Origin: Candidatus Omnitrophota bacterium
GTDB lineage: Bacteria; Omnitrophota; Gorgyraeia; Gygaellales; Profunditerraquicolaceae
Direction: 5' to 3'
DNA: 64,000 nt
Assembly (NCBI GenBank): GCA_041651035.1
Contig: JBAZKC010000002.1
Span: forward strand, 30,884-94,883
Shown here piece by piece: positions 13,251 to 64,000 of this stretch. Under the pieces are notes generated by a model, which was given only the letters and a program-made list of their open reading frames with translations, was not told the origin of the DNA and made no database searches. Position numbers and translations under genes: made by a program. The first letter of the stretch is position 1. Every line of letters starts with the position of its first letter.

Positions 13251-13280
13251 TTGACAAGATAAATACTTTATGATTAAATT
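13251..13280 (+). promoter_or_regulatory. Candidate promoter TTGACA-18-TTAAAT in an AT-rich 200-bp spacer
   Basis: TTGACA at 13251-13256. Direct repeats atctaagtaag at 13148-13158 and 13223-13233 lie upstream. Confidence 0.35.
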
Positions 13281-13319
13281 AAGTCCACAATGATTTATAA
13301 TGTAATAAGGTAAAATCCT

Positions 13320-45600: not shown

Positions 45601-46507
45601 GTGCCTCAAACTCGACTCTGCTGAGTTTGAGATCTTGATCTTGCCTGACGAACCTATTGCCCAAAGGGACAGTCTCTGTTCGGGGACAGTCCCTATTAGA
45701 GTTATTCCCACGGGCCCTGTGTCTCCGGCTGATAAGCGGGACATAGCCATAAAATACGCGAAAGGAGACATCGTTGCTTTTATCGATGACGATGCCTATC
45801 CGGTAAAAGATTGGCTTAAAAACGCGTTAGAGAATTTTAAAGATGAAGAGGTGGCCGCGGTAGGGGGGCCGGCAATAACCAGCCCTCTGGACAGCTTAAG
45901 ACAAAAAGCAAGCGGCGCGATATATTCGTCGTTTTTAGTAAGCGGGGGATTTGTCTATCGTTATCTGCCTAAGGAAAAAAGAGAGATAGATGATTATCCG
46001 AGTTGTAATCTTCTGGTCCGTAAATCCATAATGCGGGAGTTAGGCGGTTTTAATACCAAGTTCTGGCCGGGAGAAGATACTAAGCTTTGCCTGGATATAA
46101 CTGTCAGGCTCGGTAAAAAGATAATTTATGACCCCGGTGTCCTGGTTTATCATCACCGCCGGCCGGTCTTTGTCCCCCATCTTAAGCAGATAGCTAATTA
46201 TGCCCTTCATCGCGGTTATTTCGTAAAGAAATACCCCGAAACCTCTTTAAAGTTGCCTTATTTTATTCCCACGCTATTTCTATTCGCGCTGACAATAGGC
46301 GCTATCTTGTCTATGGTTTCAGCTCCCATTAGAATAATTTATTCTTTAGGGTTGTCGTTATATTTAATTTCAGTTTTTATTTCTAGTATTCGTAATGGCG
46401 CGCGTTTGGCACCTTTTGTATTTTTCGGCATAATATTTACTCATTGCACCTATGGTTTTTATTTCCTGAAAGGCCTTTTTTACCAGAAGCTTTCCGAAGA
46501 AAAATAA
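45536..46507 (+). CDS. Glycosyltransferase family 2 with C-terminal membrane helices
   Basis: VSIIIVVK..IDDDAYP; contains a 28-bp in-frame GGGAC element at 45666-45693 (SLCSGTVP). The start overlaps the upstream GT2 by 65 nt. Confidence 0.75.
   Translation: MTVSIIIVVKTWQKNLEECVGKCLKLDSAEFEILILPDEPIAQRDSLCSGTVPIRVIPTGPVSPADKRDIAIKYAKGDIVAFIDDDAYPVKDWLKNALENFKDEEVAAVGGPAITSPLDSLRQKASGAIYSSFLVSGGFVYRYLPKEKREIDDYPSCNLLVRKSIMRELGGFNTKFWPGEDTKLCLDITVRLGKKIIYDPGVLVYHHRRPVFVPHLKQIANYALHRGYFVKKYPETSLKLPYFIPTLFLFALTIGAILSMVSAPIRIIYSLGLSLYLISVFISSIRNGARLAPFVFFGIIFTHCTYGFYFLKGLFYQKLSEEK
45666..45693. repeat. Short gggacagtc / ggggacagtccc element inside the GT2 CDS
   Basis: gggacagtctctgttcggggacagtccc. 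Confidence 0.6.
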
Positions 46508-46508
46508 T

Positions 46509-46744: not shown

Positions 46745-46754
46745 AAAAATAAAT

Positions 46755-48248: not shown

Positions 48249-49114
48249 AAGGAATAATTTTAGCAGGAGGCAAGGCCAGGAGGCTGTATCCGATCACCAA
48301 GGGGGTCTGTAAGCAAATGCTCCCTATTTACGACAAGCCTATGATTTATTATTCTCTATCTACGTTGATGCTTGCCGGTATAAAGAATATCCTGATAATT
48401 TCTACTCCGGTTGCTCTGCCTAGATTCAAGGATTTATTAGGCGATGGCTCTCTTTTGGGTATTAACATTTCCTATGCCCAACAGCTTGAGCCAAAAGGCA
48501 TAGCCGAAAGTTTTATCGTAGGAGAAAATTTTATCGGGGACGATAAGGTTTGTTTAATATTAGGAGATAATATATTTTACGGGCACAATCTTACCGGGAT
48601 CCTGAAAGAGGCCCGTTCCCTAAAGGAAGGGGCAGCGGTTTTTGGCTATTATGTAAAAGACCCCTCAAGATACGGAGTAATAGGGCTTAACGCTCGGGGC
48701 AGGGTAATCTCAATCCAAGAGAAGCCAAAAAAACCGGCATCCAACTGGGCAATTACTGGATTGTATTTCTATGATAACGAAGTAGTCCGCATCTCAAAGA
48801 GCCTCAAGCCTTCTTACCGCGGAGAATTAGAGATAACCGATGTTAATAACGAATATTTAAAGAAAGGGAAACTTAAAGTCAAACTTTTAAACCGCGGATA
48901 CGCCTGGTTGGATACAGGTACTTGCGATTCTTTAATTGACGCTTCGATGTTCATTAAAACCATAGAAGAGAGGCAAGGGTTAAAGATCGGCTGTATTGAA
49001 GAAGTGGCTTATAGAATGGGGTATATCAACAAAAAACAATTGGCAAATTTGGCGCGGGAAATAGGCACAAATTATGGCGAATACCTAAAGAGCATATTAA
49101 AAGATGAAGAATAA
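48245..49114 (+). CDS. rfbA: Glucose-1-phosphate thymidylyltransferase
   Basis: MKGIILAGGKARRLYPITK..KQMLPIYDKPMIYY signature. Confidence 0.92.
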   Translation: MKGIILAGGKARRLYPITKGVCKQMLPIYDKPMIYYSLSTLMLAGIKNILIISTPVALPRFKDLLGDGSLLGINISYAQQLEPKGIAESFIVGENFIGDDKVCLILGDNIFYGHNLTGILKEARSLKEGAAVFGYYVKDPSRYGVIGLNARGRVISIQEKPKKPASNWAITGLYFYDNEVVRISKSLKPSYRGELEITDVNNEYLKKGKLKVKLLNRGYAWLDTGTCDSLIDASMFIKTIEERQGLKIGCIEEVAYRMGYINKKQLANLAREIGTNYGEYLKSILKDEE

Positions 49115-49952
49115 AATCCTTATTTTAGGCAATGGTTATATCGGTAATAGGCTTTGCGAGGAGCTCGGAGCCGAGCTTGCCGGAGGGAGGATCAGTTCTT
49201 TGCTAGATGCGCAAGAACAGATCCAGATGTATAAGCCTAACATCATTATTAACTGTATCGGGCATACCGGAAGAAACGTTGATGATTGCGAACTGGATAA
49301 GGATAAGACATTAATGGCGAATACATTTGTCCCCGTGATCTTAGGCGAAGCGGCGCTGCGCGATAATATTAAACTCATCCATATCAGCAGCGGATGTATT
49401 TACAAATTTGATTATTCTCAGGATAGTCCTATTAAAGAAGATAAGACGCCCGATTTCTTTAGGCTCTTTTATAGCCGGACCAAGATATACGCCGAACAGG
49501 CGTTAAAGGCATTGTTTAAAGAATGTCCGGCACTGATCGTCAGGATACGCATACCGCTGGACAACCGGCCCCATCCTAAGAATCTGCTTACTAAGCTGCT
49601 GGAGTACAAGAAGATTATCGATATTCCCAATTCAGTTACCTATATCCCAGATTTTATAGAAGCTTTAAAACATTTGATCCATATTAATGCCGAGGGTATT
49701 TACAATGTCGTCAATAGAGATGGCTTGCGCTACCCCGACCTTTTAGATGCATATAAGAAATACATTCCGGATTTTCAATACCGGGTCGTTGACTACAAGG
49801 AATTGAATTTAGTAAGGACTAACCTGATATTGTCTACGGCTAAACTCCAGAGATCCGGCTTTAAGGTGAGAGATATTAATTCTGTTTTAGACGAATGTGT
49901 AAGGGGATATTTGGGATATTCAGGGACTGTCCCCACCAAAGCTATTAGTTAG
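49104..49952 (+). CDS. dTDP-4-dehydrorhamnose reductase-like (RmlD substrate-binding family)
   Basis: ILILGNGYIGNRL Rossmann, HISSGCIY, YSRTKIYAE catalytic YxxxK. The last 10 codons and stop are encoded by the palindromic element at 49921. Confidence 0.65.
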   Translation: MKNKILILGNGYIGNRLCEELGAELAGGRISSLLDAQEQIQMYKPNIIINCIGHTGRNVDDCELDKDKTLMANTFVPVILGEAALRDNIKLIHISSGCIYKFDYSQDSPIKEDKTPDFFRLFYSRTKIYAEQALKALFKECPALIVRIRIPLDNRPHPKNLLTKLLEYKKIIDIPNSVTYIPDFIEALKHLIHINAEGIYNVVNRDGLRYPDLLDAYKKYIPDFQYRVVDYKELNLVRTNLILSTAKLQRSGFKVRDINSVLDECVRGYLGYSGTVPTKAIS

Positions 49953-49981
49953 CCATAACCAAGGGGACTGTCCCTAAAGAG
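49921..49981. repeat. Type A-variant palindromic element spanning the rfbD-like 3' end
   Basis: cagggactgtccccaccaaagctattagttagccataaccaaggggactgtccctaaagag. Confidence 0.75.
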
Positions 49982-49990
49982 GGTGGTATA

Positions 49991-51028
49991 ATGACCAATA
50001 AATCTATCTTGATTACCGGCGGCGCGGGTTTTATCGGCAGCGCCTTTGTAAGATTGTTAAATCAAGGGGACGGTTCTGCCTTTGGTAGAACCGTCCCCGA
50101 GTTTCACAGAACAGGAACTGTCCCTAAGATTATAGTAGTAGACAGCCTTACCTATGCCGGAGATTTAAAGCGTCTTAAAGAAGCAAAGGGCAGATTTAAG
50201 TTCTACAAAGTTGATATTTGCGATAAGAAAAGAATGGAAGCGGTCTTCGCGAAAGAAAAACCGCAAGCCGTAGTGCACTTTGCCGCGGAAAGCCACGTTG
50301 ACCGCAGTATTAATGATGCTACGCCATTTATTGAAACTAATATTAAGGGCACACAAATTCTTCTTGATGCCGGCCGCAAGCACGAGATAAATAAATTTAT
50401 TTTTATTTCCACCGACGAGGTCTACGGAGAGATTGCCAATGGCAAGTTTAACGAAAATTCTCCAATTAGGCCGAACAGCCCTTACGCGGCTTCTAAAGCG
50501 GCAGCAGACCTCCTGGTGCAGGCATATATCAGGACTTACAAATTCCCCGCGATAATTATCCGGCCGTCAAATAATTACGGCCCCTGGCAATACCCGGAAA
50601 AACTCATTCCCTTAGCTGTTTTAAAAATATTGCGCGATAAAAAAGTGCCTGTTTATGCTCAGGGCAAGAATGTCCGGGAGTGGCTTTATGTGGAAGACTG
50701 CGCGAAAGGAATTATGCGGATATTGCAAACGGGAAAGCTTGGGCAGGTTTATAACCTGGGAAGCAATGAAGAAAAACAGAATATAGACGTGGTGAAAATG
50801 ATCTTGAATATTTTCAATAAGCCCGAAAATATGATTGAATTTGTAAAGGACAGGCCCGGGCATGACATACGCTATAGCCTGGATTCCAGGAAGGCCCGTC
50901 GGGAAACTAATTGGAAACCGAAAATAAAGTTCAAAGAAGGCATTAAATTGACCGTATCTTGGTATCTCAAAAACAAGAGTTGGCTTCTTAGTAAATATCC
51001 GTCAGCAGGGACTGGTCCCGAAAAGTAG
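49991..51028 (+). CDS. rfbB: dTDP-glucose 4,6-dehydratase
   Basis: ILITGGAGFIGS.., YAASKAAAD (YxxxK). Has a 62-bp composite element inserted in-frame after the Rossmann motif (50067-50128), and its C-terminus and stop lie inside the element at 51006. Confidence 0.88.
   Translation: MTNKSILITGGAGFIGSAFVRLLNQGDGSAFGRTVPEFHRTGTVPKIIVVDSLTYAGDLKRLKEAKGRFKFYKVDICDKKRMEAVFAKEKPQAVVHFAAESHVDRSINDATPFIETNIKGTQILLDAGRKHEINKFIFISTDEVYGEIANGKFNENSPIRPNSPYAASKAAADLLVQAYIRTYKFPAIIIRPSNNYGPWQYPEKLIPLAVLKILRDKKVPVYAQGKNVREWLYVEDCAKGIMRILQTGKLGQVYNLGSNEEKQNIDVVKMILNIFNKPENMIEFVKDRPGHDIRYSLDSRKARRETNWKPKIKFKEGIKLTVSWYLKNKSWLLSKYPSAGTGPEK
50067..50128. repeat. Composite type B + partial type A element in-frame inside rfbB
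   Basis: ggggacggttctgcctttggtagaaccgtccccgagtttcacagaacaggaactgtccctaag; colinear with the intergenic composite at 46509-46575. Confidence 0.8.
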
Positions 51029-51067
51029 CTTAAGATGAACTGTTCTTAGGGACCTGTCCCTAAAGAG
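51006..51067. repeat. Type A palindromic element overlapping the rfbB stop
   Basis: cagggactggtcccgaaaagtagcttaagatgaactgttcttagggacctgtccctaaagag; the rfbB TAG is the aaaagTAG inside the element. Confidence 0.8.
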
Positions 51068-51078
51068 AGGAAAGTAGT

Positions 51079-52158
51079 ATGTCCATAGTCATAGTTACCG
51101 GTTCTTGCGGTTTGATCGGCTCTGAGGCAGTGAGCTTTTTTTGTGAAAAAGGCTTTAAGGTTATAGGCATAGATAATAATATGCGCGAGGCCTTCTTTGG
51201 CAAAGACGGCAGTACCTTCTGGAACAGGAAACGGCTGGAGAAGAAGCATGAGAACTATAAGCATTATTCAGTTGATATCAGGAATGGATCCGGGATTACG
51301 CGGATTTTTAAGAAATTCCATAAAGATGTTTCTTTGATAATCCACGCCGCTGGCCAACCTTCGCATGATTGGGCTGCGGGTGACCCGAAGACGGATTTTG
51401 GAGTCAATGCCGCCGCTACTTTGTTGCTGCTGGAGGCCTACAGGAAATATTGCCCGGAGTCGGTATTTATTTTTACCTCAACCAACAGAGTTTACGGCGA
51501 TAGGCCTAATTACCTGCCTTTAATAGAGATGGAGAAAAGGTATGAACTTCCTTCAGGCCATGAGTATTATAACGGCATAAACGAGTCCATGAGCATAGAT
51601 AATTGCCTGCACGGTTTATTTGGCGCTTCCAAGGTTAGCGCGGATATATTGACACAGGAGTATGGAAAATATTTCGGCTTAAAAACCGGGGTATTCAGAG
51701 GTGGCTGCCTTACCGGCCCGGCGCATTCCGGGGCAGAGCTTCATGGTTTTTTGTCATATCTGATGAAGTGCTGCGTAACCAAAAAAAAGTATACAATATT
51801 TGGCTATAAAGGCAAACAGGTGCGCGACAATATCCATTCTTATGATCTGGTAAGCGCCTTTTATCATTTTTTTCAGCAGCCGCGCCGCGGGGAAGTTTAT
51901 AATATCGGTGGAGGAAGGTTTGCTAACGTATCGGTTCTGGAGGCAATAGATATATGTGAAAAGGTAACAGGGGCAAAATTAGATTATGAATACGCCGAGA
52001 AAAACAGGATCGGAGACCATATCTGGTGGATAAGCGATGTTTCCAAATTCAGGTCTCATTATCCCGGATGGGCTTATAAATATAACACTGAGGATACCAT
52101 AAAACAGATCTACGAAGTTCAAAAGGGATCAGTAAATTCTAAGAGATTGATCGGTTAA
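51079..52158 (+). CDS. NAD-dependent epimerase/dehydratase (CDP-paratose/tyvelose 2-epimerase-like)
   Basis: [25 protein letters not shown].., SDR-extended fold with a YxxxK. Confidence 0.75.
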
Positions 52159-52908: not shown

Positions 52909-52967
52909 TCATCCCCCCCTTCCTATATCTACCTGTAATGAAATAAGTTATGTTCGAAAAAAGTGTT

Positions 52968-52994
52968 TTGCTATAGCCCAATCAGTGTTATAAT
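52968..52994 (+). promoter_or_regulatory. Promoter TTGCTA-15-(TGt)TATAAT, 8 nt before the peptidase ATG (near-leaderless)
   Basis: TATAAT at 52989-52994 preceded by TGt; the ATG is at 53003. Confidence 0.45.
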
Positions 52995-53002
52995 ATACAA
53001 CT

Positions 53003-53794: not shown

Positions 53795-54058
53795 ATGTTC
53801 TGGACTATCGTTGGCTCAACTGCCGCGGCCCTAACCATGTTTTCGTTTGTGCCTCAGATTATCAAAGGATTTACTACGAAATCTGTCAAAGACGTCAGCC
53901 CGGTTACGTTATTTCAACTTTCAAGCGGTGTTTCATTATGGGTTATCTACGGTATATATCTTAAGGATTATGTTATAATAATTGCCAATATAGTAACCCT
54001 GGTTTCTTTAATAATTTTGTTATGCCAGTATTTTAATTACAGAAAAACAAAATGTTAA
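53795..54058 (+). CDS. SemiSWEET / PQ-loop sugar transporter
   Basis: 87 aa, 3 TM helices, PQ motif in FSFVPQIIKG. Confidence 0.7.
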   Translation: MFWTIVGSTAAALTMFSFVPQIIKGFTTKSVKDVSPVTLFQLSSGVSLWVIYGIYLKDYVIIIANIVTLVSLIILLCQYFNYRKTKC

Positions 54059-54075: not shown

Positions 54076-56055
54076 ATGGAAGAGCGCCCGGTAGTTTCAG
54101 TTATAGTAACAACCAGGAATGAAGAAAATAATATAGCAGGTTGTCTGGAATCCATCAAAAATCAAACCTATCCTCAAGATAGGATTGAAATAATTGTGGT
54201 GGATAACAGCTCTATAGACAAGACTAAGGGAATCGCTTATAAATATACAGATAAAGTATACAATTCTGGCCCTGAGCGCTCAGCCCAGAGAAACTTCGGC
54301 GTAAAACAGGCAGCCGGTAAGTATATTTTGTATTTAGATGCGGATATGGCATTATCTGAAAATGTTATATCTGAATGTGTTCAGAAATGCGAAAAAGAAG
54401 GGTATGTTGCTATATATATACCTGAAAGGATTATTGGTAAAGGGTTTTGGATTAAAGCAAGGGACTTTGAACGGAGTTTTTATAACTCTACCTGTATAGA
54501 TTGTGTAAGATTTATCAGAAAGGATAATTTTCTGGAGATAGACGGTTTTGATGAGACCTTAACAGGACCCGAGGATTGGGATTTTGATAGGAGAATAAAT
54601 AAGAGCGGTAAAGTCGGGATTATAAACTCTGTCTTATATCATAATGAACATAACTTCTGTCTTAGAGAATACCTAAGAACAAAAATCTATTATATTGTAT
54701 CTTTTAATAAATATATACGTAAGTGGGGGAAAGACGACGCAATAATAAAGAAACAACTTGGCTTTTACTATAGGTATTGGGGGGTTTTTATAGAAGACGG
54801 CAGATGGATAAAGCTAATTCTGCATCCTTTGTTAACTATAAGAATTTTTTTATTGAGGTTTCTAGTAGGGGTAGCATATCTATTGAGTAGAATGAAGAAA
54901 AATAGCACAGTTCTTTCCGGAAGAGGAGTGTTGATACTATCTCCATTTTTTTCTCCAAATATGGGAGGAGTTGAAACTCATCTTGATGATCTCTGCGGAT
55001 ACCTTACTTCACATAACTATAGAGTACATGTTATTACTTACCAGCCACTAACTACAAGAGTAAAATGCCCCAAATTTTATAAAAATAATGGCTTGGAAGT
55101 AAAAAGGATTTATTGGTTTAGGGGGAATCTTTTTCACAAATTGGAACCTTATCCTGTTTTGGAAGTTTTATATCTTACGCCCAGACTTCTCTTGAGTACT
55201 TTCTGGTTCTTGGTTTTTAATAAGGATAAGATTGACGTAATACATGCTCACGGATTTAACGCAGTTTTAGTCACTAGACTTGTAAATTTAATATTTAGAA
55301 AAAGATCGGTTATGAGTACTCATGCCATTTACCAGTTAGATAAAAAACCGTTAATGGCAAAATTCATTAAATGGATGTTGGGTGGCATAGATGTAATAAT
55401 GCCTCTTGCAGAGAAATCAAAGAAAGAATTAGTAACAATCGGCGTGCCTGAGAAGAAAATCAGGATTTATACTCAATGGGTTAATCAAGAAATTTTCCGT
55501 CCTTTGTTAAAAAATGAATGTAGAAAGAAATTGAATCTTAAAGGAGAATTCTTTGTGCTTTTTGTCGGCAGGCTGATTGAAAAAAAAGGAGTTTTGGTTT
55601 TATTAGATGTCGCCAGGAAATTACCCGAAATAAATTTTATTTTTGTAGGTAGTGGTCCGGTATTAGGGCGACTCTTGGACGCAAAGACATATTTAAATAA
55701 TATTTTCGTCGCGGGAGAGAAGAACCAAGAAGAAATAAGTATTTTTTATGGGGCTTCCGATGTTGTAGTTGTTCCTTCTCAATATGAAGAAGGCTTTGCT
55801 CGTGTTGTATTGGAAGCGCTTTTCTCGGGGAGACCGGTTATAGCCGTCAACAAAGGGTGTCTTGTCGAAATGTTGAATAAAGACGTTGGGATCTTGGTTG
55901 ATCCTAGTATAGAGAATCTGGCTAAAGCTATTAAATCATTATATCATGATTCGGCATATCTTACTAATATAACCTCCAATACAAGACTATACGCTTTAAA
56001 CCGCTTTAGCGAGAATAATGCTAAAGCCATAATGGGATCCTATGAAAAGAATTAA
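54076..56055 (+). CDS. Bifunctional glycosyltransferase: N-terminal GT2, C-terminal GT4/GT1
   Basis: VSVIVTTRNE..VVDNSS..YLDADM (GT2) and a C-terminal E..FARVVLEALFSGRPVIA (GT4 E-x7-E region). Confidence 0.8.
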   Translation: MEERPVVSVIVTTRNEENNIAGCLESIKNQTYPQDRIEIIVVDNSSIDKTKGIAYKYTDKVYNSGPERSAQRNFGVKQAAGKYILYLDADMALSENVISECVQKCEKEGYVAIYIPERIIGKGFWIKARDFERSFYNSTCIDCVRFIRKDNFLEIDGFDETLTGPEDWDFDRRINKSGKVGIINSVLYHNEHNFCLREYLRTKIYYIVSFNKYIRKWGKDDAIIKKQLGFYYRYWGVFIEDGRWIKLILHPLLTIRIFLLRFLVGVAYLLSRMKKNSTVLSGRGVLILSPFFSPNMGGVETHLDDLCGYLTSHNYRVHVITYQPLTTRVKCPKFYKNNGLEVKRIYWFRGNLFHKLEPYPVLEVLYLTPRLLLSTFWFLVFNKDKIDVIHAHGFNAVLVTRLVNLIFRKRSVMSTHAIYQLDKKPLMAKFIKWMLGGIDVIMPLAEKSKKELVTIGVPEKKIRIYTQWVNQEIFRPLLKNECRKKLNLKGEFFVLFVGRLIEKKGVLVLLDVARKLPEINFIFVGSGPVLGRLLDAKTYLNNIFVAGEKNQEEISIFYGASDVVVVPSQYEEGFARVVLEALFSGRPVIAVNKGCLVEMLNKDVGILVDPSIENLAKAIKSLYHDSAYLTNITSNTRLYALNRFSENNAKAIMGSYEKN

Positions 56056-57064
56056 AGATAAACTTTACGATATTGTAGTCTATAACCGTTCAATTAAGCG
56101 GATGGTGGTCGCCTTTTTTAAAACGCCGATTATCGTGAATAACCCGGCATACAATTTCATTTATGGGCGCTTATTAAAAAAAAAGATGGAGTTATTCAAT
56201 GATATCCCTTTCAGGGTAATGATTGAAAATACGAATAATTGCAATGCAAATTGCGTATTCTGTCCTCATAAAAATATGAAGCGTGAATCCGGCACGATGG
56301 AACTTGCTTTGACACGAAGAATCATAGATGAATGCGCTAATTTCGGGATTACATATTTGACTATTTATGGTTTCGGAGAGCCGCTCCTAGATAAATATTT
56401 TTTTGAGAGGGTAAGATATGCAAAATCAAAGAAGATAGATAGAGTAACCACAAATACAAATGCCATGTATCTGAACAAAAATATCGCTAAAGAGTTTATT
56501 GATTCGGGCATTGACGAAGTATACATAAGTTTTGACGCAGCTACGGCAGATACATTTAAAATGATCAGGCCCAACCTTAATTTTGATACAGTAAAACAAA
56601 ATATACTCGGGTTGATAGAAGAGAAGAAGCGGAGAAAAATCTCCAAACTAAAAGTTTTCTTGAGTTTTGTAGAAGGCAATCATAATATGCATGAAAGAGA
56701 TGCATATATTAAAGAATGGAAGAATAAGGTGGATGGTGTGTCGGTATCATTGATTCATAACTGGACGGGAAGTATCAAGAAAATGGACAAAGAATTGAGC
56801 TGTCTCAGGAGAGATCCTTGTAGGTTGCTTTGGACCGATATGGTCGTAAGCTGGAACGGTGATGTACCTTTATGCTGTAATGATTTTGATAACCGGATAA
56901 TCCTTGGTAATGTCACTTGTTCTTCCATCAAAGAGATATGGTCGGGAGAAAAGCTCAAAAAAATACGGCAATCGCACTTGAATAAAGAATTCTCGGCAAT
57001 AGCCGTTTGTAAAGAATGTGAATATAATCTTCATTTCAAATCACCCTGGTGGATATCAAAATGA
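56042..57064 (+). CDS. Radical SAM/SPASM domain protein
   Basis: CNANCVFC radical SAM cluster. C-terminal Cys cluster C..C..CC..C..CKEC typical of SPASM. Confidence 0.8.
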   Translation: MKRIKDKLYDIVVYNRSIKRMVVAFFKTPIIVNNPAYNFIYGRLLKKKMELFNDIPFRVMIENTNNCNANCVFCPHKNMKRESGTMELALTRRIIDECANFGITYLTIYGFGEPLLDKYFFERVRYAKSKKIDRVTTNTNAMYLNKNIAKEFIDSGIDEVYISFDAATADTFKMIRPNLNFDTVKQNILGLIEEKKRRKISKLKVFLSFVEGNHNMHERDAYIKEWKNKVDGVSVSLIHNWTGSIKKMDKELSCLRRDPCRLLWTDMVVSWNGDVPLCCNDFDNRIILGNVTCSSIKEIWSGEKLKKIRQSHLNKEFSAIAVCKECEYNLHFKSPWWISK

Positions 57065-57870
57065 CGCGTATTAACGACATGGAAGAGGATATCGCTATTA
57101 CAAGAGAAAAATGGCAGAATCGATATTTGGATAGTCAATCTGATAAGTATAAGAGATCCTGCGTACCCTCGACGGTTAAAATAAGCAGTGGGTACGCAAG
57201 AAATTTCCTTTTTGACAATAAACCGGAAAGCGGTATCCTGCTTGAGGCTGGATGTGGGACTGCTAGGACATCATTAGATGTATCCTTTTCAGGAGAGTTG
57301 ACTATAATCTGTGTCGATATATCTATGGGGGCATTAGAACAGGCGCGTAAACTTTTCAAGGAAAATAATCCTTCTGCAAAAGTTTATTTCGTTTGTTGCG
57401 ATTTGAGAACGCTCCCTTTTAAGGGTGCTTCCATAGGGCATATATTCAGTGATGGTGCGATTGAGCATTTCCGGGATACCGGGCTTTCGGTTAAAGAATT
57501 CTACCGTGTGCTTAAATCCGGTGGCAGAGTATTTGCTACTGTTCCATGTGTATCGTTTTCCATGTTTACATACGGACAATTACAGGGTAATATACCCGAT
57601 ATATTCTTACTGAGAAATCTATTTGAAGTGATTCATATAAAAATGCTTAGATCCAAATTAATGACCAATGGTTATGAATTATCATTCATCCCTGGTAAAA
57701 TCAGGGGTATTTTTAAAAATGCTGGCTTTAAGTATCCCCGGATTGGCCTTTTCGATACTTTTAACGAGATTAAATTCGTCAGAAACCAGTTTCTAAAACA
57801 AATATTTAGAAGGCTGACAAAGATGCGCATGTTTTGGCCATTGATTTATATTTTTGCGGAGAAACAATGA
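57061..57870 (+). CDS. Class I SAM-dependent methyltransferase
   Basis: LEAGCGTAR motif I; ATG at 57061 overlapping the upstream stop (ATGA). Confidence 0.75.
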   Translation: MTRINDMEEDIAITREKWQNRYLDSQSDKYKRSCVPSTVKISSGYARNFLFDNKPESGILLEAGCGTARTSLDVSFSGELTIICVDISMGALEQARKLFKENNPSAKVYFVCCDLRTLPFKGASIGHIFSDGAIEHFRDTGLSVKEFYRVLKSGGRVFATVPCVSFSMFTYGQLQGNIPDIFLLRNLFEVIHIKMLRSKLMTNGYELSFIPGKIRGIFKNAGFKYPRIGLFDTFNEIKFVRNQFLKQIFRRLTKMRMFWPLIYIFAEKQ

Positions 57871-58919
57871 GCGGATTGAAAGCCCATCTTGAATTAACCA
57901 ATATATGCAACCTCGAATGTTCGTATTGTCCAAAATATGCGATGAAACGCAAATTGGGGTATATGGACAAAAACCTGGCAATCAGACTGATCGACGAACT
58001 GTCCGGCTATGGAAAAAGTTTGGAAAAGGTGTTCTTTCATTTAATGGGGGAACCTCTGATGCATCCAAATTTCATGGAGCTGGTGCATTATGCAGTAGCG
58101 AAGAAGATTCCCCTTTCACTTTATTCGAATGGTAGCCTTTTAAATGTTGATCGCATAAGGGCGTTGCTTAATTCCAATCTAAAGGAATTAATTGTGAGTT
58201 TTCAGACTCCGGCTAAAGATAGTTTTAAGCTTAGGAAAGACTCCTTAGGTTATGATGACTATCTAGAGAACATCAAGAATCTTATTCTGGAAAAGATAAA
58301 ATCAGAATCAGAAACCAGGATTGAATTAAGGATTTTAAACACAGCAAAAAGGAATATTTTTTCTTTGCGTTTCTGGTTTGTGGATAGAAATCTAGATGTT
58401 TTTTCAGATAAGGGAATCCTTAAAAACTTCCTTGCTGACCTTAATCAGAAGTTAAACAAACACTCTTTGCATATAGATATACAAAAAGTCCTGGGAGGGA
58501 TTTCTATGAGAAGCTCGGTGTTTACAGCGGAACTGTTTAAGGGCATATTTGTAGTAGGGACTACGTATTTTTCCTGGTATAATTTCGAAGACGCTAAGGA
58601 TCCGGTTTTCAAGAAAGCCAGGATAGGGAGTTGTGATGGATTCATGAAACAGGTGGGTATACTGTGGGATGGATCGGTAACTTCCTGTTGTGTTGATTAT
58701 AATGGGGATAATGTTATGGGTTCCGTTGTCAATAAGAGCATTAGAGAAGTATTGAGTAGCCAAAAAGTTATTGATTTCATATCTAAGCTTAAGCATTGTC
58801 TGCTGCCTACGCCATATTGCAGAATATGTCGCGGCGCGAGAAAAATAAGGGTGTTACTTATGAAACAATTAGGTTCAATTATTATTTTTAATCTCGCTAG
58901 AATCGGAGAGGGAAAATGA
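57867..58919 (+). CDS. Radical SAM/SPASM domain protein (second copy, divergent)
   Basis: CNLECSYC cluster; C-terminal C..CC..C..CRIC SPASM-like; ATG at 57867 with a ggag RBS. Confidence 0.8.
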   Translation: MSGLKAHLELTNICNLECSYCPKYAMKRKLGYMDKNLAIRLIDELSGYGKSLEKVFFHLMGEPLMHPNFMELVHYAVAKKIPLSLYSNGSLLNVDRIRALLNSNLKELIVSFQTPAKDSFKLRKDSLGYDDYLENIKNLILEKIKSESETRIELRILNTAKRNIFSLRFWFVDRNLDVFSDKGILKNFLADLNQKLNKHSLHIDIQKVLGGISMRSSVFTAELFKGIFVVGTTYFSWYNFEDAKDPVFKKARIGSCDGFMKQVGILWDGSVTSCCVDYNGDNVMGSVVNKSIREVLSSQKVIDFISKLKHCLLPTPYCRICRGARKIRVLLMKQLGSIIIFNLARIGEGK

Positions 58920-59968
58920 AAAGAGCTCTTATAACGGGCATCACGGGGCAGGACGGTTCTTATCTGGCAAAGTTTCTTCTTGAAAAAGGGTATAAGGTTT
59001 ATGGAATTTATCGACGGTTATCTACGCCTAATTTCTGGCGGCTGCAGCATTTAGATATTTTTGACAAAGTAAACCTTATACCAGCTGATTTGATAGATGC
59101 GGCTTCAATCAGTGAAGCTATTAGGATTGCCGATGCTGAAGAAATATATCATCTCGCCGCGCAAAGCTTCGTAGGGACTTCTTTTGAGCAGCCCATAGGT
59201 ACGGGCGAAATTACTGGTCTCGGAGTGACCAGAATTCTCGAGGAAATACGCCAGATTAACCCAAAGATCAAATTTTATCAGGCATCTACTTCAGAATTGT
59301 TCGGCAACGGCCACAAGAAACCACAGAATGAGATCTCGCGGTTTCAACCTTCAAGTCCATATGCAGCTTCAAAACTGTACGGTTACTGGATTACTGAAAT
59401 TTATAGGAAGGGTTATGGTCTATTCGCGGTTAACGGGATACTGTTTAATCACGAGTCACCCTTAAGAGGCCTGGAATTTGTAACCCGGAAAATATCAAAT
59501 GCAGTTGCAAAGATCTCGTTGGGGTTGGCGAAGGAATTAAGAGTTGGGAATATGACTGCCAAAAGAGATTGGGGTTATGCCCCTGAATACGTAGAAAGTA
59601 TGTGGCTTATGCTCCAGCAGAAGAAAGCAGATGATTTTGTAATATCCACGGGTGAAACTCATTCGGTTGAAGAATTTATGTCTGAGGCGTTCAAAATAGT
59701 AAATTTAAAATGGCAGAAATATGTAAAAAAAGATAAGACTCTAATGCGGCCGCTTGATGTAGATCTACTTTGTGGTGATTGTTCCAAGGCAAAAAACATA
59801 CTGCATTGGCAGCCAAAGACTAAATTTAGGGAGTTAGTGAAAATAATGGTGGAAGCTGACCTAAAGAGATGGAAAAGGTTTCTAAAGGGGGAGCATTTTC
59901 CATGGGATGCGGCGATCTATCCCCATGAGTATATGATATTATCAAGACAATATAAACTCGACCAATAA
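58916..59968 (+). CDS. gmd: GDP-mannose 4,6-dehydratase
   Basis: [28 protein letters not shown]..; GMD family signature. Confidence 0.92.
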
Positions 59969-59987
59969 TACCGCGCTTAAATATTTT

Positions 59988-61214
59988 ATGACGCATTGTA
60001 GAATCTGTAAATCTAGAAATCTATCGAAATTCTTGGATTTGGGTATGATGCCACCCGCAGATGGTTTTCTTAGCAAAGGTGAACTATGCTTGAAAGAAAA
60101 AAGCTATCCCTTGGAGGTATGTATTTGCAAAGATTGTTCCTTAGTTCAACTGGGCTATACAGTTTCTCCCCAGATCCTGTATCAAATGAACTATCCTTAC
60201 GAATCATCCATTACAAAGACAGGAGTAACACATTTTTATTCCTTCGCCAGTCAGATTGTCAGTGACTTTGGGTTATCAAGAAATGATTTGGCGGTAGATA
60301 TAGGATCTAATGTGGGGGTGTTACTTGAAGGTTTTAAGAAATCAGGAATTAAGGTGTTGGGGGTCGAACCGGCGGCAAATATCTGTCAGAAATCGCATCA
60401 AAGGGGGATAGAGGCTATAAATGATTTTTTTAATGCAAAAACAGTCAAGTTAATCATTCGGGAAAAGGGGAAGGCAAAGGTGATAACAGGCACTAATGTC
60501 ATCGCCCATATAGATAACTTGCATTCGCTGGTTAGAAATGTAAAGAATCTGCTCACAGAAAAAGGGATATTTGTTTTTGAGGCCCCCTATTTGGCCGATT
60601 TGATCAATAACCTTGAATATGACACAATCTATCACGAGCATCTTATGTACTTTTCGGTTAAACCCTTAATCACATTATTTGATCAATTTGATATGGAGAT
60701 CTTTGATATAAAAAAACAGCGTATCCATGGGGGTTCTTTAAGATATTTCATTTCTCGGAAATACAATTATCCTGTTTCTGCGGAAGTCAACAAATTTCTG
60801 AAGATTGAAAAAGAACAGAGAATCCACGATATTGCCACATTTAGAAAGTTTTCCAAGAGAGTCAAGAATAACCGTAAAATTCTAGTTACTTTACTTGAAT
60901 CCTTGAAATCTAAGGGTAAGAGAATTGCCGGGGTAGGGGCGCCGGCAAAAGGAATGACTTTGCTTAATTATTGCGGTATAGGTCCCGAAACGCTTGATTT
61001 TGTAACCGAAAAATCAAAGTTAAAAATAAACAAATTCACCCCTGGGCGGCATATACCTATAGTGCCTGATTCACGGTTGATTAAAGCAATGCCTGATTAT
61101 GCCCTTTTACTACCCTGGAATTTTGCGAATGAAATTATGAACAATCTTAAAAATTATACCAAATTAGGCGGTAAATTTATACTTCCCATACCTAGCCCGC
61201 GTATTATCAGCTAG
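59988..61214 (+). CDS. NDP-hexose C-methyltransferase-like (zinc-ribbon N-terminus, class I SAM MTase, C-terminal C-methyltransferase domain)
   Basis: CRICKS..CKDCSLVQL zinc-binding N-terminus, then DIGSNVG motif I; layout of TylCIII-type sugar 3-C-methyltransferases. Confidence 0.7.
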   Translation: MTHCRICKSRNLSKFLDLGMMPPADGFLSKGELCLKEKSYPLEVCICKDCSLVQLGYTVSPQILYQMNYPYESSITKTGVTHFYSFASQIVSDFGLSRNDLAVDIGSNVGVLLEGFKKSGIKVLGVEPAANICQKSHQRGIEAINDFFNAKTVKLIIREKGKAKVITGTNVIAHIDNLHSLVRNVKNLLTEKGIFVFEAPYLADLINNLEYDTIYHEHLMYFSVKPLITLFDQFDMEIFDIKKQRIHGGSLRYFISRKYNYPVSAEVNKFLKIEKEQRIHDIATFRKFSKRVKNNRKILVTLLESLKSKGKRIAGVGAPAKGMTLLNYCGIGPETLDFVTEKSKLKINKFTPGRHIPIVPDSRLIKAMPDYALLLPWNFANEIMNNLKNYTKLGGKFILPIPSPRIIS

Positions 61215-61226
61215 AAAGGCGTCGTC

Positions 61227-61601
61227 ATGAAAATCAAGAAAAAAAAGATATCTTTCCGCGACAAAAGAGGCTGTATCGCAGACATCCTTGGAAAAGAACA
61301 CATTGAGTATATCACTTTAATAACTTCCAAAAAAGGTGCGGTCAGAGGTAATCATTTTCATAGATATTCGGTACAATATAACTTCATTGTTAATGGGAGG
61401 ATGAAACTTTTTAGTCGTATGCCTGGGGAAAAAACCAAAACCGTTGTCTTAAAAAAAGGAGACTTGGCCTTCAACCCGATGAGAGAAGAACATGCTTTAC
61501 TTGCTTTGGAAAACTCGGAATTCTTAGTATTTACAAGAGGGCCGCGAGGCGGGAAAAACTATGAGAACGATACATTCCGTCTGAAAAATAAACTAATCTA
61601 A
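61227..61601 (+). CDS. Cupin-fold sugar isomerase/epimerase-like protein (FdtA/WxcM-like)
   Basis: 124 aa with VRGNHFH (RG.H.H) cupin motif. Confidence 0.5.
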   Translation: MKIKKKKISFRDKRGCIADILGKEHIEYITLITSKKGAVRGNHFHRYSVQYNFIVNGRMKLFSRMPGEKTKTVVLKKGDLAFNPMREEHALLALENSEFLVFTRGPRGGKNYENDTFRLKNKLI

Positions 61602-61607
61602 GAAATT

Positions 61608-62723
61608 ATGAAAATCCCTGTATCAAAACCATTTTTAGGAAAAGGGGAAATACAAAATGTCCTTACTGCGCTAAAGGTAAAGGCAATCTCTGGTTTATAC
61701 GGTGAATACATCAATAAATTCGAGAATGAGTTTGCTAATTATTGCGGATGTAAATACGGTGTATCCACAAATAGCGGAACCACGGCCCTGCATTTAGCTA
61801 TCGCTTCTCTGGGAATAGGTAAAGGGGATGAGGTATTGGTGAGTTCTTTTACAAACATGGCGACATTTTTTGCAGTTCTTTACCAGGGGGCGAAACCAGT
61901 GCCGATAGATATAGAGCCGGATACCTGGAATCTAAACCCGGACCTTTTGGAGAGTAAAATAACGAATAAGACAAAAGCCATCATGGCGGTGCATATCTAT
62001 GGTCATCCGTGCAATATGGGACCGATAATGAAAATTGCAGCTAAGTATGGTTTATTTCTCATCGAGGATTGTGCGGAAGCGCACGGGGCTACCTATCGAG
62101 GACGAAAAGTAGGCTCTTTTGCCGATGTTGCGGCCTTTAGTTTCTATGCCAATAAGATTATCACCACCGGCGAAGGAGGGATGCTTATAACCAATAATAA
62201 GAAGCTTGCAAACAAAATAAGGTCTTTGAAAAGCCTAGCATTCGGCAACAAGCATAGATTTATGCACAAAGACATAGGCTATGGCTATAGGATGACTAAT
62301 ATACAGGCAGCGATAGGGTACGCCCAGTTTAAGAAAATAGAAAAATTGATTAAAATGAAACGAAAGATGGCAGATTATTATACCAAAAACTTTATTGCTA
62401 TTCCTTCTTTGCAGCTACCCATAGAAGAAAAATATGCCAGGAATGTTTACTGGATGTACCACGTAGTGTTAAAGCGGGACTCTGCTCTTTCGCGCAATAA
62501 AATCATGAAAGAACTGTCCGGAAGAGGCATTGAAACTAGGGAATCATTTATTCCGTATAATATGCAGGAAATATTCACTAGAAAAGGATGGACAGCATAC
62601 GGTGATTGTCCAATAGCTAATTTTGTGGCCAAAAATGGGTTTTATCTTCCGAGTTCACCCGATCTCACAGAAAAAGAACAGAATTATGTAATTAAGAATA
62701 TAAAGGAAGTCATAAATGGATAA
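61608..62723 (+). CDS. DegT/DnrJ/EryC1/StrS-family sugar aminotransferase
   Basis: 371 aa, PLP fold type I; FSFYANKIITTGEGG (PLP-lysine region). Confidence 0.88.
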   Translation: MKIPVSKPFLGKGEIQNVLTALKVKAISGLYGEYINKFENEFANYCGCKYGVSTNSGTTALHLAIASLGIGKGDEVLVSSFTNMATFFAVLYQGAKPVPIDIEPDTWNLNPDLLESKITNKTKAIMAVHIYGHPCNMGPIMKIAAKYGLFLIEDCAEAHGATYRGRKVGSFADVAAFSFYANKIITTGEGGMLITNNKKLANKIRSLKSLAFGNKHRFMHKDIGYGYRMTNIQAAIGYAQFKKIEKLIKMKRKMADYYTKNFIAIPSLQLPIEEKYARNVYWMYHVVLKRDSALSRNKIMKELSGRGIETRESFIPYNMQEIFTRKGWTAYGDCPIANFVAKNGFYLPSSPDLTEKEQNYVIKNIKEVING

Positions 62724-63501
62724 AAAAAACAGAGAGGAACTACTGCGCGACAGTAAATTACGAGAACATTTTTTTGCTAATGAAGTAATTGCTTTTTGCA
62801 GGAGAAAAATGGAATTTATACTGCAAAATCTGAAGCCAGGGATAATATTAGATGCGGGCGTCGGTTCAGGCTATATTTCTGCTGAGATTAAGAAATCCAA
62901 TTCTAAGGTATTCTCACTTGATTCCGAATTTGCAGCTATACAGGAATGCCAATTGTTGATGGATCTCAGACAGATAAGGTTTCAATTATTTATTGCCAGA
63001 CTCCCCGATCTGCCATTTAAAGATTCAAATTTTGATTCTATTGTCTGTACCGATGTTATCGAGCATATTCCGGATTTGGAAAAAGCTTTTTATTGCTTTC
63101 ACCGTATTCTGAAACCCGAAGGCAGATTGATACTTTCATTGCCTAATGGTTACGGATTTGATACAATTGCCGGATTATATTCGAAGAGAAATAACTCTGT
63201 AAATAAGCGTCTTAAAGAATTAGGCATCGATATAAACCAAAAATATAGCAAGAGTACATTACGGCATATACATAAATTTACTCCACGTTCGATGAAAAAA
63301 TATCTAGAAAAATCAAGATTTGATATTCTAAAATTTGAGAATACCGCATTTTTGTCCCAGTATATCTCAGCTTTTTTCTCTGGCATCTTAGGTTATGAAA
63401 GAGAATTTTCTTCTAGAATAGAGAATATCGATATCCGTATTGCCAAACACTTGCCGTTATTATTGGGAAGCCATTGGCTGATATCCTGTAAGAAAATATA
63501 A
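62716..63501 (+). CDS. Class I SAM-dependent methyltransferase
   Basis: LDAGVGSGY motif I; acidic motif II DVIEH. Confidence 0.75.
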   Translation: MDKKNREELLRDSKLREHFFANEVIAFCRRKMEFILQNLKPGIILDAGVGSGYISAEIKKSNSKVFSLDSEFAAIQECQLLMDLRQIRFQLFIARLPDLPFKDSNFDSIVCTDVIEHIPDLEKAFYCFHRILKPEGRLILSLPNGYGFDTIAGLYSKRNNSVNKRLKELGIDINQKYSKSTLRHIHKFTPRSMKKYLEKSRFDILKFENTAFLSQYISAFFSGILGYEREFSSRIENIDIRIAKHLPLLLGSHWLISCKKI

Positions 63502-63502: not shown

Positions 63503-64000
63503 ATGAATAATAATATTTTTGATTCTAAATATGCAAGATATTACGATATAATCTATAAAGATAAAGACTACCCAAAAGAATGCATATACATAGAGAAACT
63601 TTTTAAAAAGTTTATAGGTGGGCATATAGAGATTTTAGATATCGCCTGCGGAACAGGCAATCATTTACTACCATTTATCAATAAAGGATATGCGATCAGC
63701 GGGATAGATTTATCTTCTGCTATGATCGAAGCGGCGAAAAGGAAAATACCGTCAGGCATAAGTTCGAAAATAGATTTACAGGTCGCCAGCATGCAAAACT
63801 TTAGGATGAAAAAAAGATTTGATGTCATAATATTAATGTTTTCCGCGATAAATTATCTTACTGAATATCGTGATTTGAAAAAAACCATAATAAATATCCG
63901 CACTCATCTTAAGCCAGGAGGAGTATTTATTTTCGACTTCTGGAATGGTTTTGCAGTACTTGACCATTATTCTATCAGAAGAGATAAAATAGCGAGAGAA
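63503..64000 (+). CDS. Class I SAM-dependent methyltransferase (3'-truncated by window end)
   Basis: ILDIACGTGNHL motif I; the ORF runs off the window and is not in the track because it has no stop. Confidence 0.65.
   Translation, partial: MNNNIFDSKYARYYDIIYKDKDYPKECIYIEKLFKKFIGGHIEILDIACGTGNHLLPFINKGYAISGIDLSSAMIEAAKRKIPSGISSKIDLQVASMQNFRMKKRFDVIILMFSAINYLTEYRDLKKTIINIRTHLKPGGVFIFDFWNGFAVLDHYSIRRDKIARE

Follow-up and report, generated by a model that had tools for sequence, protein, structure and literature searches.

We analysed the locus of two radical S-adenosylmethionine (SAM) enzymes, rSAM-1 and rSAM-2, in a window of 64,000 nucleotides, by which we mean the whole stretch of DNA considered here. 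It lies on a contig of 385,813 bp from the metagenome-assembled genome (MAG) of an uncultured Candidatus Omnitrophota bacterium. An earlier note, made from the sequence alone, had described positions 54076-63501 as a glycan locus in which these two enzymes flank a methyltransferase. The gene content agrees with that description. The region holds 9 complete open reading frames (ORFs), all on the + strand, and the Pfam domains assigned to all of them reproduce the gene set given in the note. The genes of this region and the truncated gene that follows are:

54076..56055, + strand: fusion of a family 2 and a family 4 glycosyltransferase (GT2 + GT4) with a hydrophobic linker; Glycos_transf_2 E 1.8e-25, Glycos_transf_1 E 2.3e-30
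56042..57064, + strand: rSAM-1, 340 amino acids; Radical_SAM E 9.5e-18, SPASM E 2.7e-15
57049..57870, + strand: MT_A, class I SAM methyltransferase, overlapping both adjoining rSAM genes; Methyltransf_11 E 7.4e-18
57867..58919, + strand: rSAM-2, 350 amino acids; Radical_SAM E 6e-18, SPASM E 1.2e-8
58916..59968, + strand: GDP-mannose 4,6-dehydratase (Gmd); GDP_Man_Dehyd E 1.5e-119
59988..61214, + strand: sugar 3-C-methyltransferase of the TylC3 / TcaB9 type; Methyltransf_13 E 1.7e-21, Methyltransf_14 E 1.8e-55
61227..61601, + strand: small cupin, 124 amino acids; Cupin_2 E 4.3e-5 (weak)
61608..62723, + strand: DegT-family aminotransferase; DegT E 2.4e-117
62716..63501, + strand: MT_B, class I SAM methyltransferase; Methyltransf_23 and Methyltransf_11, E 1e-17 to 1e-18
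63503..64000, + strand: MT_C, methyltransferase cut by the window end; Pfam methyltransferase domains

The GT2+GT4 fusion shows a hydropathy peak at residues 245-271, and its stop codon overlaps the start of rSAM-1. It falls within the coordinates of the earlier note but goes unmentioned in the title given there. The start of rSAM-2 is ATG 57867 and not TTG 57834, according to the homologue alignment and the NCBI gene model. NCBIfam assigned no specific family to rSAM-1, rSAM-2, MT_A, MT_B or the cupin, all matches being far under the cut-offs. A PDB search with MT_A returned generic methyltransferases only.

Domain architecture of rSAM-1 and rSAM-2

Both proteins belong to the radical SAM superfamily, as each contains a CX3CX2C motif with a GGE-like motif and matches PF04055 at E ~1e-17. 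The cluster motif reads C67-x3-C71-x2-C74 in rSAM-1 and is formed by C14/C18/C21 in rSAM-2, and the SAM motifs are F111-G-E-P and M60-G-E-P, respectively. Conservation was read from alignments of 24 rSAM-1 and 15 rSAM-2 homologues. The cysteine triad is invariant in the rSAM-1 homologues and conserved in the full-length rSAM-2 homologues, and GEP is invariant in both.

Further invariant cysteines are located in the C-terminal parts: C260, C278, C279, C323 and C326 in rSAM-1, and C256, C274, C275, C318 and C321 in rSAM-2. They form a signature common to both proteins, C-x12-G-x4-CC-x42-44-C-x2-C, soon after which the protein ends. The tail after CxxC is 5-14 residues long, and ~30 in rSAM-2. 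When the motif was checked in 100 family members drawn from 84 loci (see below), the CC doublet was kept in 95; of the 98 members matching the motif, 91 carry no cysteine beyond CxxC, and the median tail is 5 residues. The seven-cysteine SPASM motif (CX9-15GX4C - gap - CX2CX5CX3C - gap - C) is conserved in its first half only. Because the second half is absent, each enzyme is predicted to have one auxiliary [4Fe-4S] cluster site in a Twitch-type domain rather than a full SPASM domain. The enzymes called "SPASM" in the earlier note thus appear as truncated, Twitch-type proteins with one auxiliary-cluster motif.

hhalign shows homology between the rSAM-1 and rSAM-2 families along their entire length (probability 100%, E 1.5e-53), and we regard the two proteins as paralogues on the basis of this alignment. 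In the AlphaFold 2 (AF2) models, which have predicted local distance difference test (pLDDT) values of 89.2 for rSAM-1 and 86.6 for rSAM-2, a conserved basic N-terminal extension of 55 amino acids in rSAM-1 is all-helical without beta-sheet, and rSAM-2 has a C-terminal hydrophobic helix at residues 327-349.

Nearest characterised relatives

Profiles of both families were searched against all PDB sequences with HMMER. BtrN ranked first, far ahead of the rest, at E 2.4e-27 with the rSAM-1 profile and 1.1e-33 with the rSAM-2 profile, in two stretches each. The match spans the core and the Twitch domain, and only BtrN also aligned across the C-terminal Fe-S domain. In the HMMER alignments the four Twitch cysteines of BtrN pair with C260/C278/C323/C326 of rSAM-1 and C256/C274/C318/C321 of rSAM-2. 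Other matches were BlsE (1e-10) and GDGT-MAS (4e-10 to 4e-11). For the rSAM-1 and rSAM-2 families, respectively, SkfB gave 2e-5 and 3.5e-12 and SuiB 1e-4 and 6e-10; anSME was absent for the former and gave 1e-4 for the latter. Profile similarity to EpeE/YydG is weak (E 1e-3 to 1e-5).

Foldseek searches with the AF2 models returned BtrN as the top PDB match for both proteins, with E 1.8e-15 for rSAM-1 and 8e-12 for rSAM-2 and TM-scores of 0.70-0.76 on BtrN length. EpeE, SuiB, CteB, SkfB, anSME, BlsE and DesII were also among the fold neighbours. Compared in this way with anSME, BtrN and the peptide maturases, both proteins fall with BtrN, and the earlier guess that they could be BtrN-like carbohydrate enzymes is borne out by profile and by fold. 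We considered them as BtrN orthologues as well; this is ruled out by an identity of 16-18% and by neighbours that are glycosyltransferases, a Wzx-type flippase and methyltransferases. The Pfam annotations of 32-64 kb include no gene of the 2-deoxy-scyllo-inosose (DOI) synthase type.

Search for a precursor peptide

The successive genes between 56042 and 59968 overlap by 14, 16, 4 and 4 nt, and because of these overlaps there is no room for a precursor peptide. All ORFs of at least 20 and fewer than 60 amino acids in 55900-59100 are nested in larger genes in other frames, and none is free-standing; this includes the interval 56000-59000, where the earlier note had proposed to look for small ORFs. 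Neither rSAM protein contains a PqqD or RiPP recognition element (RRE) Pfam domain at E 1e-3 or better, RiPP denoting ribosomally synthesised and post-translationally modified peptides. The tables of genes in related loci list no conserved small peptide or sulfatase gene. The note's remark that no precursor-peptide ORF is near therefore stands, and the rSAM pair is very probably not part of a RiPP system.

The sole sizeable intergenic gap of the locus, 46507-46755 (247 nt), lies further upstream, just before the gene of a vitamin B12-binding-domain radical SAM enzyme (B12-rSAM). No convincing ORF was seen among those of at least 20 amino acids in 46480-46780. The gap is not conserved, since the gene before it (GT2b) abuts or overlaps that of the B12-rSAM in L002 and L005, two of the related loci described below. 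It could be an internal promoter.

A conserved glycosyltransferase-rich cassette

Hundreds of homologues of rSAM-1 were found. A HMMER search of 1.84 billion cluster representatives gave 7,886 family representatives at E 1e-30 or better, the family clusters being defined at 50% identity. Public names of the family members are all generic, such as "radical SAM/SPASM" or even "MoaA". For the comparison of gene neighbourhoods, 80 species-level loci and 4 found by exact protein look-up (84 in all) were used, and their ORFs were scored against the window proteins. The closest loci, L001-L016, score at least 260 bits. They are labelled Omnitrophota, Patescibacteria/Saccharibacteria, Chloroflexi, Auribacterota, Desulfobacteraceae, "Gammaproteobacteria" and archaeal; these phylum labels of MAGs come from automated bins and may be unreliable.

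In 16 of these 16 loci the rSAM-1 orthologue is located in a glycan cassette rich in glycosyltransferases. The order of the cassette is Wzx, GT2a, GT2b, B12-rSAM, GT2, GT4, rSAM-1, methyltransferases and a second B12-rSAM. In the window its upstream part begins the glycan locus, and the genes preceding the GT2+GT4 fusion are:

43513..44799, + strand: Wzx-type flippase (Polysacc_synt, Pfam E 2.9e-13), opening both the locus and the conserved cassette
44803..45600, + strand: GT2a, soluble GT2 of 265 amino acids; Pfam E 1.4e-28
45536..46507, + strand: GT2b, GT2 with a C-terminal hydrophobic segment; Pfam, hydropathy peak at residues 239-285
46755..48248, + strand: B12-rSAM; Radical_SAM E 1.5e-15
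48245..52158, + strand: dTDP-sugar genes for RmlA, an RmlD-like protein, RmlB and a short-chain dehydrogenase/reductase (SDR) epimerase/dehydratase
start 52159, + strand: 249-aa protein, hypothetical in NCBI; no match in Pfam or NCBIfam
start 53003, + strand: papain-type C1 cysteine peptidase
53795..54058, + strand: SemiSWEET/PQ-loop membrane protein, 87 amino acids; PQ-loop E 2.4e-10

In 14/16 of the closest loci the rSAM gene has a GT2 or GT4 gene on the same strand within 150 nt, either abutting or overlapping it. The GT2+GT4 fusion of the window corresponds to separate GT2 and GT4 genes in related loci, with GT4 abutting the rSAM gene. Wzx homologues occupy the same relative position in L001, L002, L004, L005 and L007. 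The best-conserved protein of the cassette is the B12-rSAM, at 492-835 bits in ten loci, and GT2b is always directly upstream of its gene in the cassette loci. MT_A orthologues (235-240 bits) are found beside or near the rSAM-1 orthologues in L001, L002 and L007. Among the loci with gene tables, L001, L002/L003 and L004 also contain a membrane protein of ~800 amino acids of the GT-C (AftD-like) type in the cassette.

The GDP-sugar genes do not follow this pattern. The cassette often occurs where nucleotide-sugar genes are lacking. In L002, for example, 21 kb around it contain no gene for nucleotide-sugar tailoring, which shows that the rSAM can occur apart from the GDP module. In L001, from Patescibacteria, the genes for rSAM-1, rSAM-2, B12-rSAM and MT_A are consecutive and a GDP module is absent. 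In L005, the closest locus and also from Omnitrophota, the rSAM-1 orthologue is followed by the Gmd, C-methyltransferase, cupin and DegT block, and MT_A and rSAM-2 are missing. The rSAM genes, MT_A and the glycosyltransferases are one unit; the GDP-sugar genes are another that comes and goes.

Relative to L005, the window carries an insertion of the dTDP-sugar genes, the 249-aa protein and the C1 peptidase, none of which is present between the B12-rSAM and SemiSWEET genes of L005. RmlA (452 bits) and RmlB (415 bits) both exceed the NCBIfam cut-offs. The 249-aa protein and the peptidase (52159-53791) are located within the glycan locus. The SemiSWEET/PQ-loop gene is kept in both Omnitrophota loci; in L005 it lies at 4661-4921, directly after the B12-rSAM. 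Its product scores 78.7 bits against SemiSWEET_2 (NCBIfam cut-off 80) and might serve as a small transporter or flippase of a modified sugar linked to a carrier. Between its GT4 and rSAM-1 genes, L005 further encodes an amidotransferase of the asparagine-synthase type and a GDSL-like protein (7048-9995); its GDP module is followed by another B12 radical SAM gene, by a GT4 and by a phosphodiesterase of type I. Several of the loci L012-L016 have a second set right after the first rSAM, composed of a GT4, a divergent Twitch-rSAM and a B12-rSAM, which suggests a repeated module of glycosyltransferase and radical SAM tailoring.

Upstream of the glycan locus, which starts at ~43513 and extends beyond the window end at 64000, housekeeping genes reach up to 43.5 kb (RNase G, L21, Obg, ProB, ProA, NadD, Rpe, PGM, S1 and TyrS). 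All annotated genes and nearly all long ORFs of the window are on the + strand. GC skew is above zero in each 2-kb bin of the window, and the cumulative skew climbs steadily. The contig carries the proteins MFA5145015 to MFA5145031. The G+C content (GC) drops at 54 kb from ~0.44 to 0.35-0.39, and this point coincides exactly with the start of the GT2-GT4 / rSAM / GDP-sugar part; the drop suggests that the low-GC part at 54-64 kb is the laterally exchanged, variable part of the glycan locus.

B12-rSAM and its GT2 partners

The B12/radical SAM gene that the earlier note had placed at 46755 is real by its Pfam domains, with the B12-binding domain at 26.8 bits, under the Pfam cut-off of 32.1. The note had considered it a candidate methylase of the GenK/Fom3 type. 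In NCBIfam the best match is HpnJ, which aligns along the whole protein at 126 bits (cut-off 578), followed by BchE at 97 bits and the methylases PhpK and HpnR at 64-65 bits, all far under the cut-offs; HpnJ and BchE, though weak, thus rank above any match of the GenK/Fom3 type. The PDB yielded a single weak match, to an unnamed protein. GT2a has weak best matches to the polyprenyl-phosphate sugar synthases AglJ, PpgS and ArnC (NCBIfam, at most 65 bits, far under the cut-offs), and GT2b matches MftF at 98.8 bits and then AglG at 52 bits. No oligosaccharyltransferase is visible within the 64-kb window.

The GDP-sugar module

The dehydratase scores 388 bits against TIGR01472, just below the cut-off of 415, and its assignment as Gmd, made by homology, is secure. 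The C-methyltransferase matches the D-mycarose 3-C-methyltransferase (4rv9) at 309 bits and TcaB9 at 278 bits over the full length in the PDB. It has the layout of TylC3/TcaB9, in which a zinc-binding domain at the N terminus is followed by a SAM domain and, at the C terminus, by Methyltransf_14. The DegT protein scores 318 bits against the LegC model (cut-off 420), 291 bits against the GDP-perosamine synthase Per (3bn1) and 234 bits against QdtB. Per and LegC are C4 aminotransferases that use GDP-sugars, and QdtB is a C3 enzyme; the ranking of the matches favours C4 amination. MT_C resembles the amino-sugar N,N-dimethyltransferases DesVI and TylM1 in its PDB matches (DesVI 3bxo 72.7 bits, TylM1 62 bits, CalS10 59.6 bits).

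The cupin had been read as 3,4-ketoisomerase-like. Its match to FdtA (PF05523) is weak and under threshold (E 0.049, 13.9 bits against a cut-off of 23), and the PDB search returned only generic bicupins of the oxalate-decarboxylase type. The call is also doubtful because a C4 aminotransferase of the Per/LegC type would need no ketoisomerase. The orthologue in L005 (185 bits) occupies the same position, and the cupin is a conserved member of the block.

As the dehydratase is Gmd, the sugar would be GDP-linked. The functions established for these families make an N-methylated GDP-3-C-methyl-4-amino-4,6-dideoxyhexose the likely product, and the C-methylated amino-deoxyhexose of the earlier note was a fair prediction in view of the C-methyltransferase, the DegT enzyme and MT_C. 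Such a sugar would resemble sibirosamine. Virenose of Coxiella is a precedent for a GDP-linked 3-C-methyl sugar. The GDP-sugar genes are a separate, portable module.

Distant relatives and fusions

Beyond the closest loci the glycosyltransferase neighbour persists. A glycosyltransferase gene lies within 150 nt on the same strand in at least 36 of the 84 loci (15 with GT2 or GT4 and 21 with GT9), a lower bound as single-sequence queries were used. In Planctomycetota loci a GT9 heptosyltransferase is immediately upstream, or LptF/LptG is immediately downstream.

Deltaproteobacterial MAGs (L017-L026; for example L021 at 8083-14523) have rSAM, GT9, rSAM, GT9, GT2 and an LpxL-type acyltransferase in a row. 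This Twitch-rSAM/GT9 array implies radical SAM tailoring of the lipopolysaccharide (LPS) core. In L037, L040 and L041 (~9900-13700; MAGs of Phycisphaerae, Pirellulales and Aegiribacteria) the family member is immediately 5' of lptF/lptG, and in L041 a DUF7544 protein lies upstream.

Several members of the family are fusions. An rSAM/Twitch protein is fused to a class I methyltransferase in P0206 and P0260, a tandem rSAM/Twitch pair is found in P0193, and a GNAT domain is joined to rSAM/Twitch in P0277. The fusions repeat the gene arrangement of the window and are an argument for rSAM-1, MT_A and rSAM-2 acting on one substrate. Fusions of a glycosyltransferase with an rSAM were suspected in long ORFs of L042, L049 and L078 and were rejected, as Pfam recognised the rSAM/SPASM part only.

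A relative of rSAM-2 with ~30-32% identity is found in a lipid-type cluster (L085, 1-17074). This cluster encodes ATP-grasp, polysaccharide deacetylase, MMPL and lipid A acyltransferase-like proteins, four ketosynthases, an AMP-ligase, a second rSAM/SPASM protein, two B12 radical SAM enzymes, an SDR and an FAD oxidase, and may encode an unusual lipid pathway. In L086 a distant rSAM-2 relative adjoins phosphoglucomutase. The contexts of L085 and L086 are unrelated and uninformative on rSAM function.

Proposed function and alternatives

All the above leads us to favour, with moderate confidence, the view that the rSAM pair acts on a sugar in concert with a glycosyltransferase. With slightly more reserve, we read the region as the variable, low-GC half of a surface-glycan assembly locus with two separable units. 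One unit, made up of GT2-GT4, rSAM-1, MT_A and rSAM-2 with the upstream Wzx, GT2a, GT2b and B12-rSAM, would build and tailor a lipid-linked glycan. Each rSAM would generate a 5'-deoxyadenosyl radical that takes a hydrogen atom from a carbinol carbon of a sugar residue. This residue would either have been freshly added by the coupled glycosyltransferase or be the direct precursor of that one, and it probably belongs to a polyprenyl-phosphate-linked intermediate. The outcome might be a keto-sugar, with the electron leaving via the auxiliary cluster as in BtrN, or an epimer, if the extra invariant cysteine gives back a hydrogen atom. MT_A would then methylate the same residue. The other unit, consisting of Gmd, the 3-C-methyltransferase, the cupin, the Per/LegC-like aminotransferase and the methyltransferases, would supply a GDP-sugar that is probably N-methylated. 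We infer the substrate, its lipid-linked state, the outcome of the reaction and the order of the steps; dehydrogenation specifically is a tentative suggestion. The picture of one heavily modified sugar made by all these enzymes, as drawn in the earlier note, is probably wrong, since the comparison of genomes shows the rSAM cassette without the GDP-sugar genes.

Several points weigh against a sugar modified together with glycosyltransfer. The identity to BtrN is just 16-18%, the window proteins are ~90 residues longer, and the substrate-binding middle region is unaligned to BtrN. Because of this low identity and the unaligned region, the type of reaction is unreadable from homology. Twitch and SPASM enzymes perform diverse chemistry, such as decarboxylation by BlsE, cyclisation by MoaA, thioether formation by SkfB and C-C coupling by GDGT-MAS. 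In the two Omnitrophota loci, the window and L005, an rSAM gene is directly beside the GDP module. Neither rSAM-1 nor rSAM-2 has a predicted transmembrane segment, hydropathy and hydrophobic moment giving weak hints only, and the 64-kb window contains no initiating phosphoglycosyltransferase and no GT-C protein. A lipid-linked substrate is suggested solely by the gene neighbourhood and by the weakly hydrophobic or basic terminal helices.

The position beside the GDP module could mean that the rSAM enzymes act on the soluble GDP-sugar intermediates of the adjoining Gmd/C-methyltransferase/cupin/DegT genes. rSAM-2 adjoins and overlaps Gmd (58916/58919), the rSAM-1 orthologue of L005 directly precedes the same block, and the substrates of BtrN, DesII and BlsE are all small soluble carbohydrates. 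Against this, rSAM-1 orthologues with 50-60% identity keep the GT4 neighbour in L001, L002, L004 and L007, where Gmd, DegT and the C-methyltransferase are absent; rSAM-2 and MT_A recur in L001 without the module; and the distant relatives are located beside GT9 or LptFG genes, not sugar-nucleotide genes. We consider a soluble GDP-sugar substrate unlikely. A little less doubtful is that the enzymes are sugar epimerases instead of dehydrogenases, with the second cysteine of the CC doublet returning hydrogen to the opposite face, a role of cysteine proposed for NeoN and for the peptide epimerase EpeE/YydG. This fifth cysteine beside a cluster ligand is invariant in both paralogue families, is kept in 95/100 of the wider members and is replaced by Phe in BtrN, and EpeE structures are among the fold neighbours; it could, however, be an alternative or additional cluster ligand, and the sequence similarity to EpeE/YydG is weak (E 1e-3 to 1e-5).

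A lipid target, be it the polyprenyl carrier, a glycolipid anchor or the membrane lipids, appears improbable to us. Both profiles match GDGT-MAS at 4e-10 to 4e-11, Tes is among the NCBIfam matches, the rSAM-2 relative of L085 sits in its ketosynthase / MMPL / B12-rSAM cluster, and a lipid A acyltransferase is encoded close to the deltaproteobacterial relatives. The matches to GDGT-MAS and Tes, however, cover the shared radical SAM core only and are 17-23 orders of magnitude weaker than that to BtrN, which alone matches the C-terminal domain as well, and the tightest and most recurrent neighbour is a glycosyltransferase. It is highly improbable that the enzymes mature peptides or proteins, whether as SPASM enzymes of RiPP pathways or as activators of the anSME type. 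Pfam names the C-terminus SPASM, many of the NCBIfam matches are peptide maturases (all far under the cut-offs), and SuiB, CteB, SkfB and anSME share the fold. These likenesses are outweighed by the lack of intergenic space and of a free-standing small ORF in 56000-59000, the lack of RRE/PqqD, the single auxiliary-cluster motif, profile matches to peptide maturases of ~1e-12 or weaker compared with 1e-27 and 1e-33 for BtrN, and related-locus tables with no conserved peptide or sulfatase gene and with the gap 46507-46755 not conserved.

Implications

The proposed coupling to a glycosyltransferase may extend to the whole family. As a tentative generalisation, a large family of Twitch radical SAM enzymes might be oxygen-independent tailoring enzymes of cell-surface glycoconjugates that work with a partner glycosyltransferase. 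If this is true, the partner would be GT4 in Omnitrophota and Patescibacteria, in Planctomycetota and Deltaproteobacteria it would be the LPS-core heptosyltransferases of the GT9 type, and the sugars would be oxidised, epimerised or otherwise rearranged during or after attachment to the lipid carrier. Together with the HpnJ-like B12 radical SAM enzyme, this would define a conserved envelope-glycan cassette of ultra-small phyla, which could yield sugar residues so far unseen in bacterial surface glycans, be they keto, C-methyl or even carbocyclic.

To our knowledge, radical SAM chemistry on carbohydrates has so far been found almost exclusively in antibiotic pathways. The current view has NAD-, pyridoxal phosphate- and SAM-dependent enzymes tailor surface glycans and LPS cores while the sugars are still nucleotide-linked. 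If a widespread radical SAM family were coupled to glycosyltransferases, glycan diversification would gain a new, oxygen-independent layer, and its relevance would be greatest for anaerobes and for host-dependent ultra-small bacteria, whose envelopes are essentially uncharacterised. The C-terminal signature C-x12-G-x4-CC-x42-44-C-x2-C separates the family from RiPP maturases; genome-mining tools currently lump both under "SPASM".

Comparison with known systems

In the literature searched, with most subscription journals outside its scope, we found no description of the cassette, of the family or of an rSAM coupled to glycosyltransferases of surface glycans or the LPS core, and no carbohydrate-acting radical SAM enzyme coupled to cell-surface glycan assembly.

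The cassette recalls two kinds of known systems. In HpnI/HpnK/HpnJ and the calditol synthase Cds, a GT2 acts and a radical SAM enzyme then remodels the sugar after lipid attachment, the chemistry of HpnJ itself being unproven (PMC13459092). The pairing of the membrane protein GT2b with the B12-rSAM recalls HpnI/HpnJ, and HpnJ is the best NCBIfam match of the B12-rSAM over its full length. However, 126 bits against a cut-off of 578 does not indicate an orthologue, hopanoid genes are absent, and the locus here has Wzx and multiple glycosyltransferases. With Haloferax AglJ/AglG/AglR and with the Gtr and Arn systems it has in common a small GT2, a membrane GT2, a Wzx-like flippase and a small PQ-loop protein, and the large GT-C (AftD-like) protein of the related loci is a further likeness to polyprenyl-phosphate glycan systems. 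All these matches are far under the cut-offs, and the known systems of this kind do not include radical SAM enzymes.

The GDP-sugar module adds an ordinary new example to pathways already known. The C-methyl and N,N-dimethyl amino sugars characterised so far are for the most part natural-product sugars linked to dTDP, whereas Gmd points here to a GDP-linked sugar of a cell-surface glycan.

Full SPASM enzymes (anSME, SuiB, CteB, PqqE and MftC) share with the rSAM pair the radical SAM core and the first-half motif C-x9-15-G-x4-C ... C-x2-C. The pair differs from them in lacking the second half of the motif, an RRE and a peptide gene, and the profile scores are much weaker. BlsE and DesII perform oxygen-independent radical chemistry on carbons of sugars or cyclitols and are near the top in the comparisons of sequence and fold; NeoN, AviX12 and SpeY are further carbohydrate-acting radical SAM enzymes. 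BlsE, DesII and their kin belong to antibiotic pathways and use soluble small-molecule substrates, unlike the glycan-linked rSAM pair.

The closest counterpart is BtrN, the 2-deoxy-scyllo-inosamine dehydrogenase of butirosin biosynthesis (PDB 4M7T/4M7S). It likewise combines a CX3CX2C core with a Twitch domain that holds a single Cys4 auxiliary cluster. The spacing of the Twitch cysteines (18 / 44-45 / 3) and the carbohydrate context are common to both. The rSAM pair departs from BtrN in an extra invariant cysteine (CC where BtrN has C-F), in the N-terminal helical extension of rSAM-1, the C-terminal helix of rSAM-2 and an insertion between core and Twitch domain in both. It is also set in glycan assembly with Wzx and glycosyltransferases, whereas BtrN is set in an aminoglycoside cluster. 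The BtrN-like architecture is already known; what appears new, as far as sequence and gene context indicate, is a putative Twitch radical SAM carbohydrate enzyme recruited to glycoconjugate assembly.

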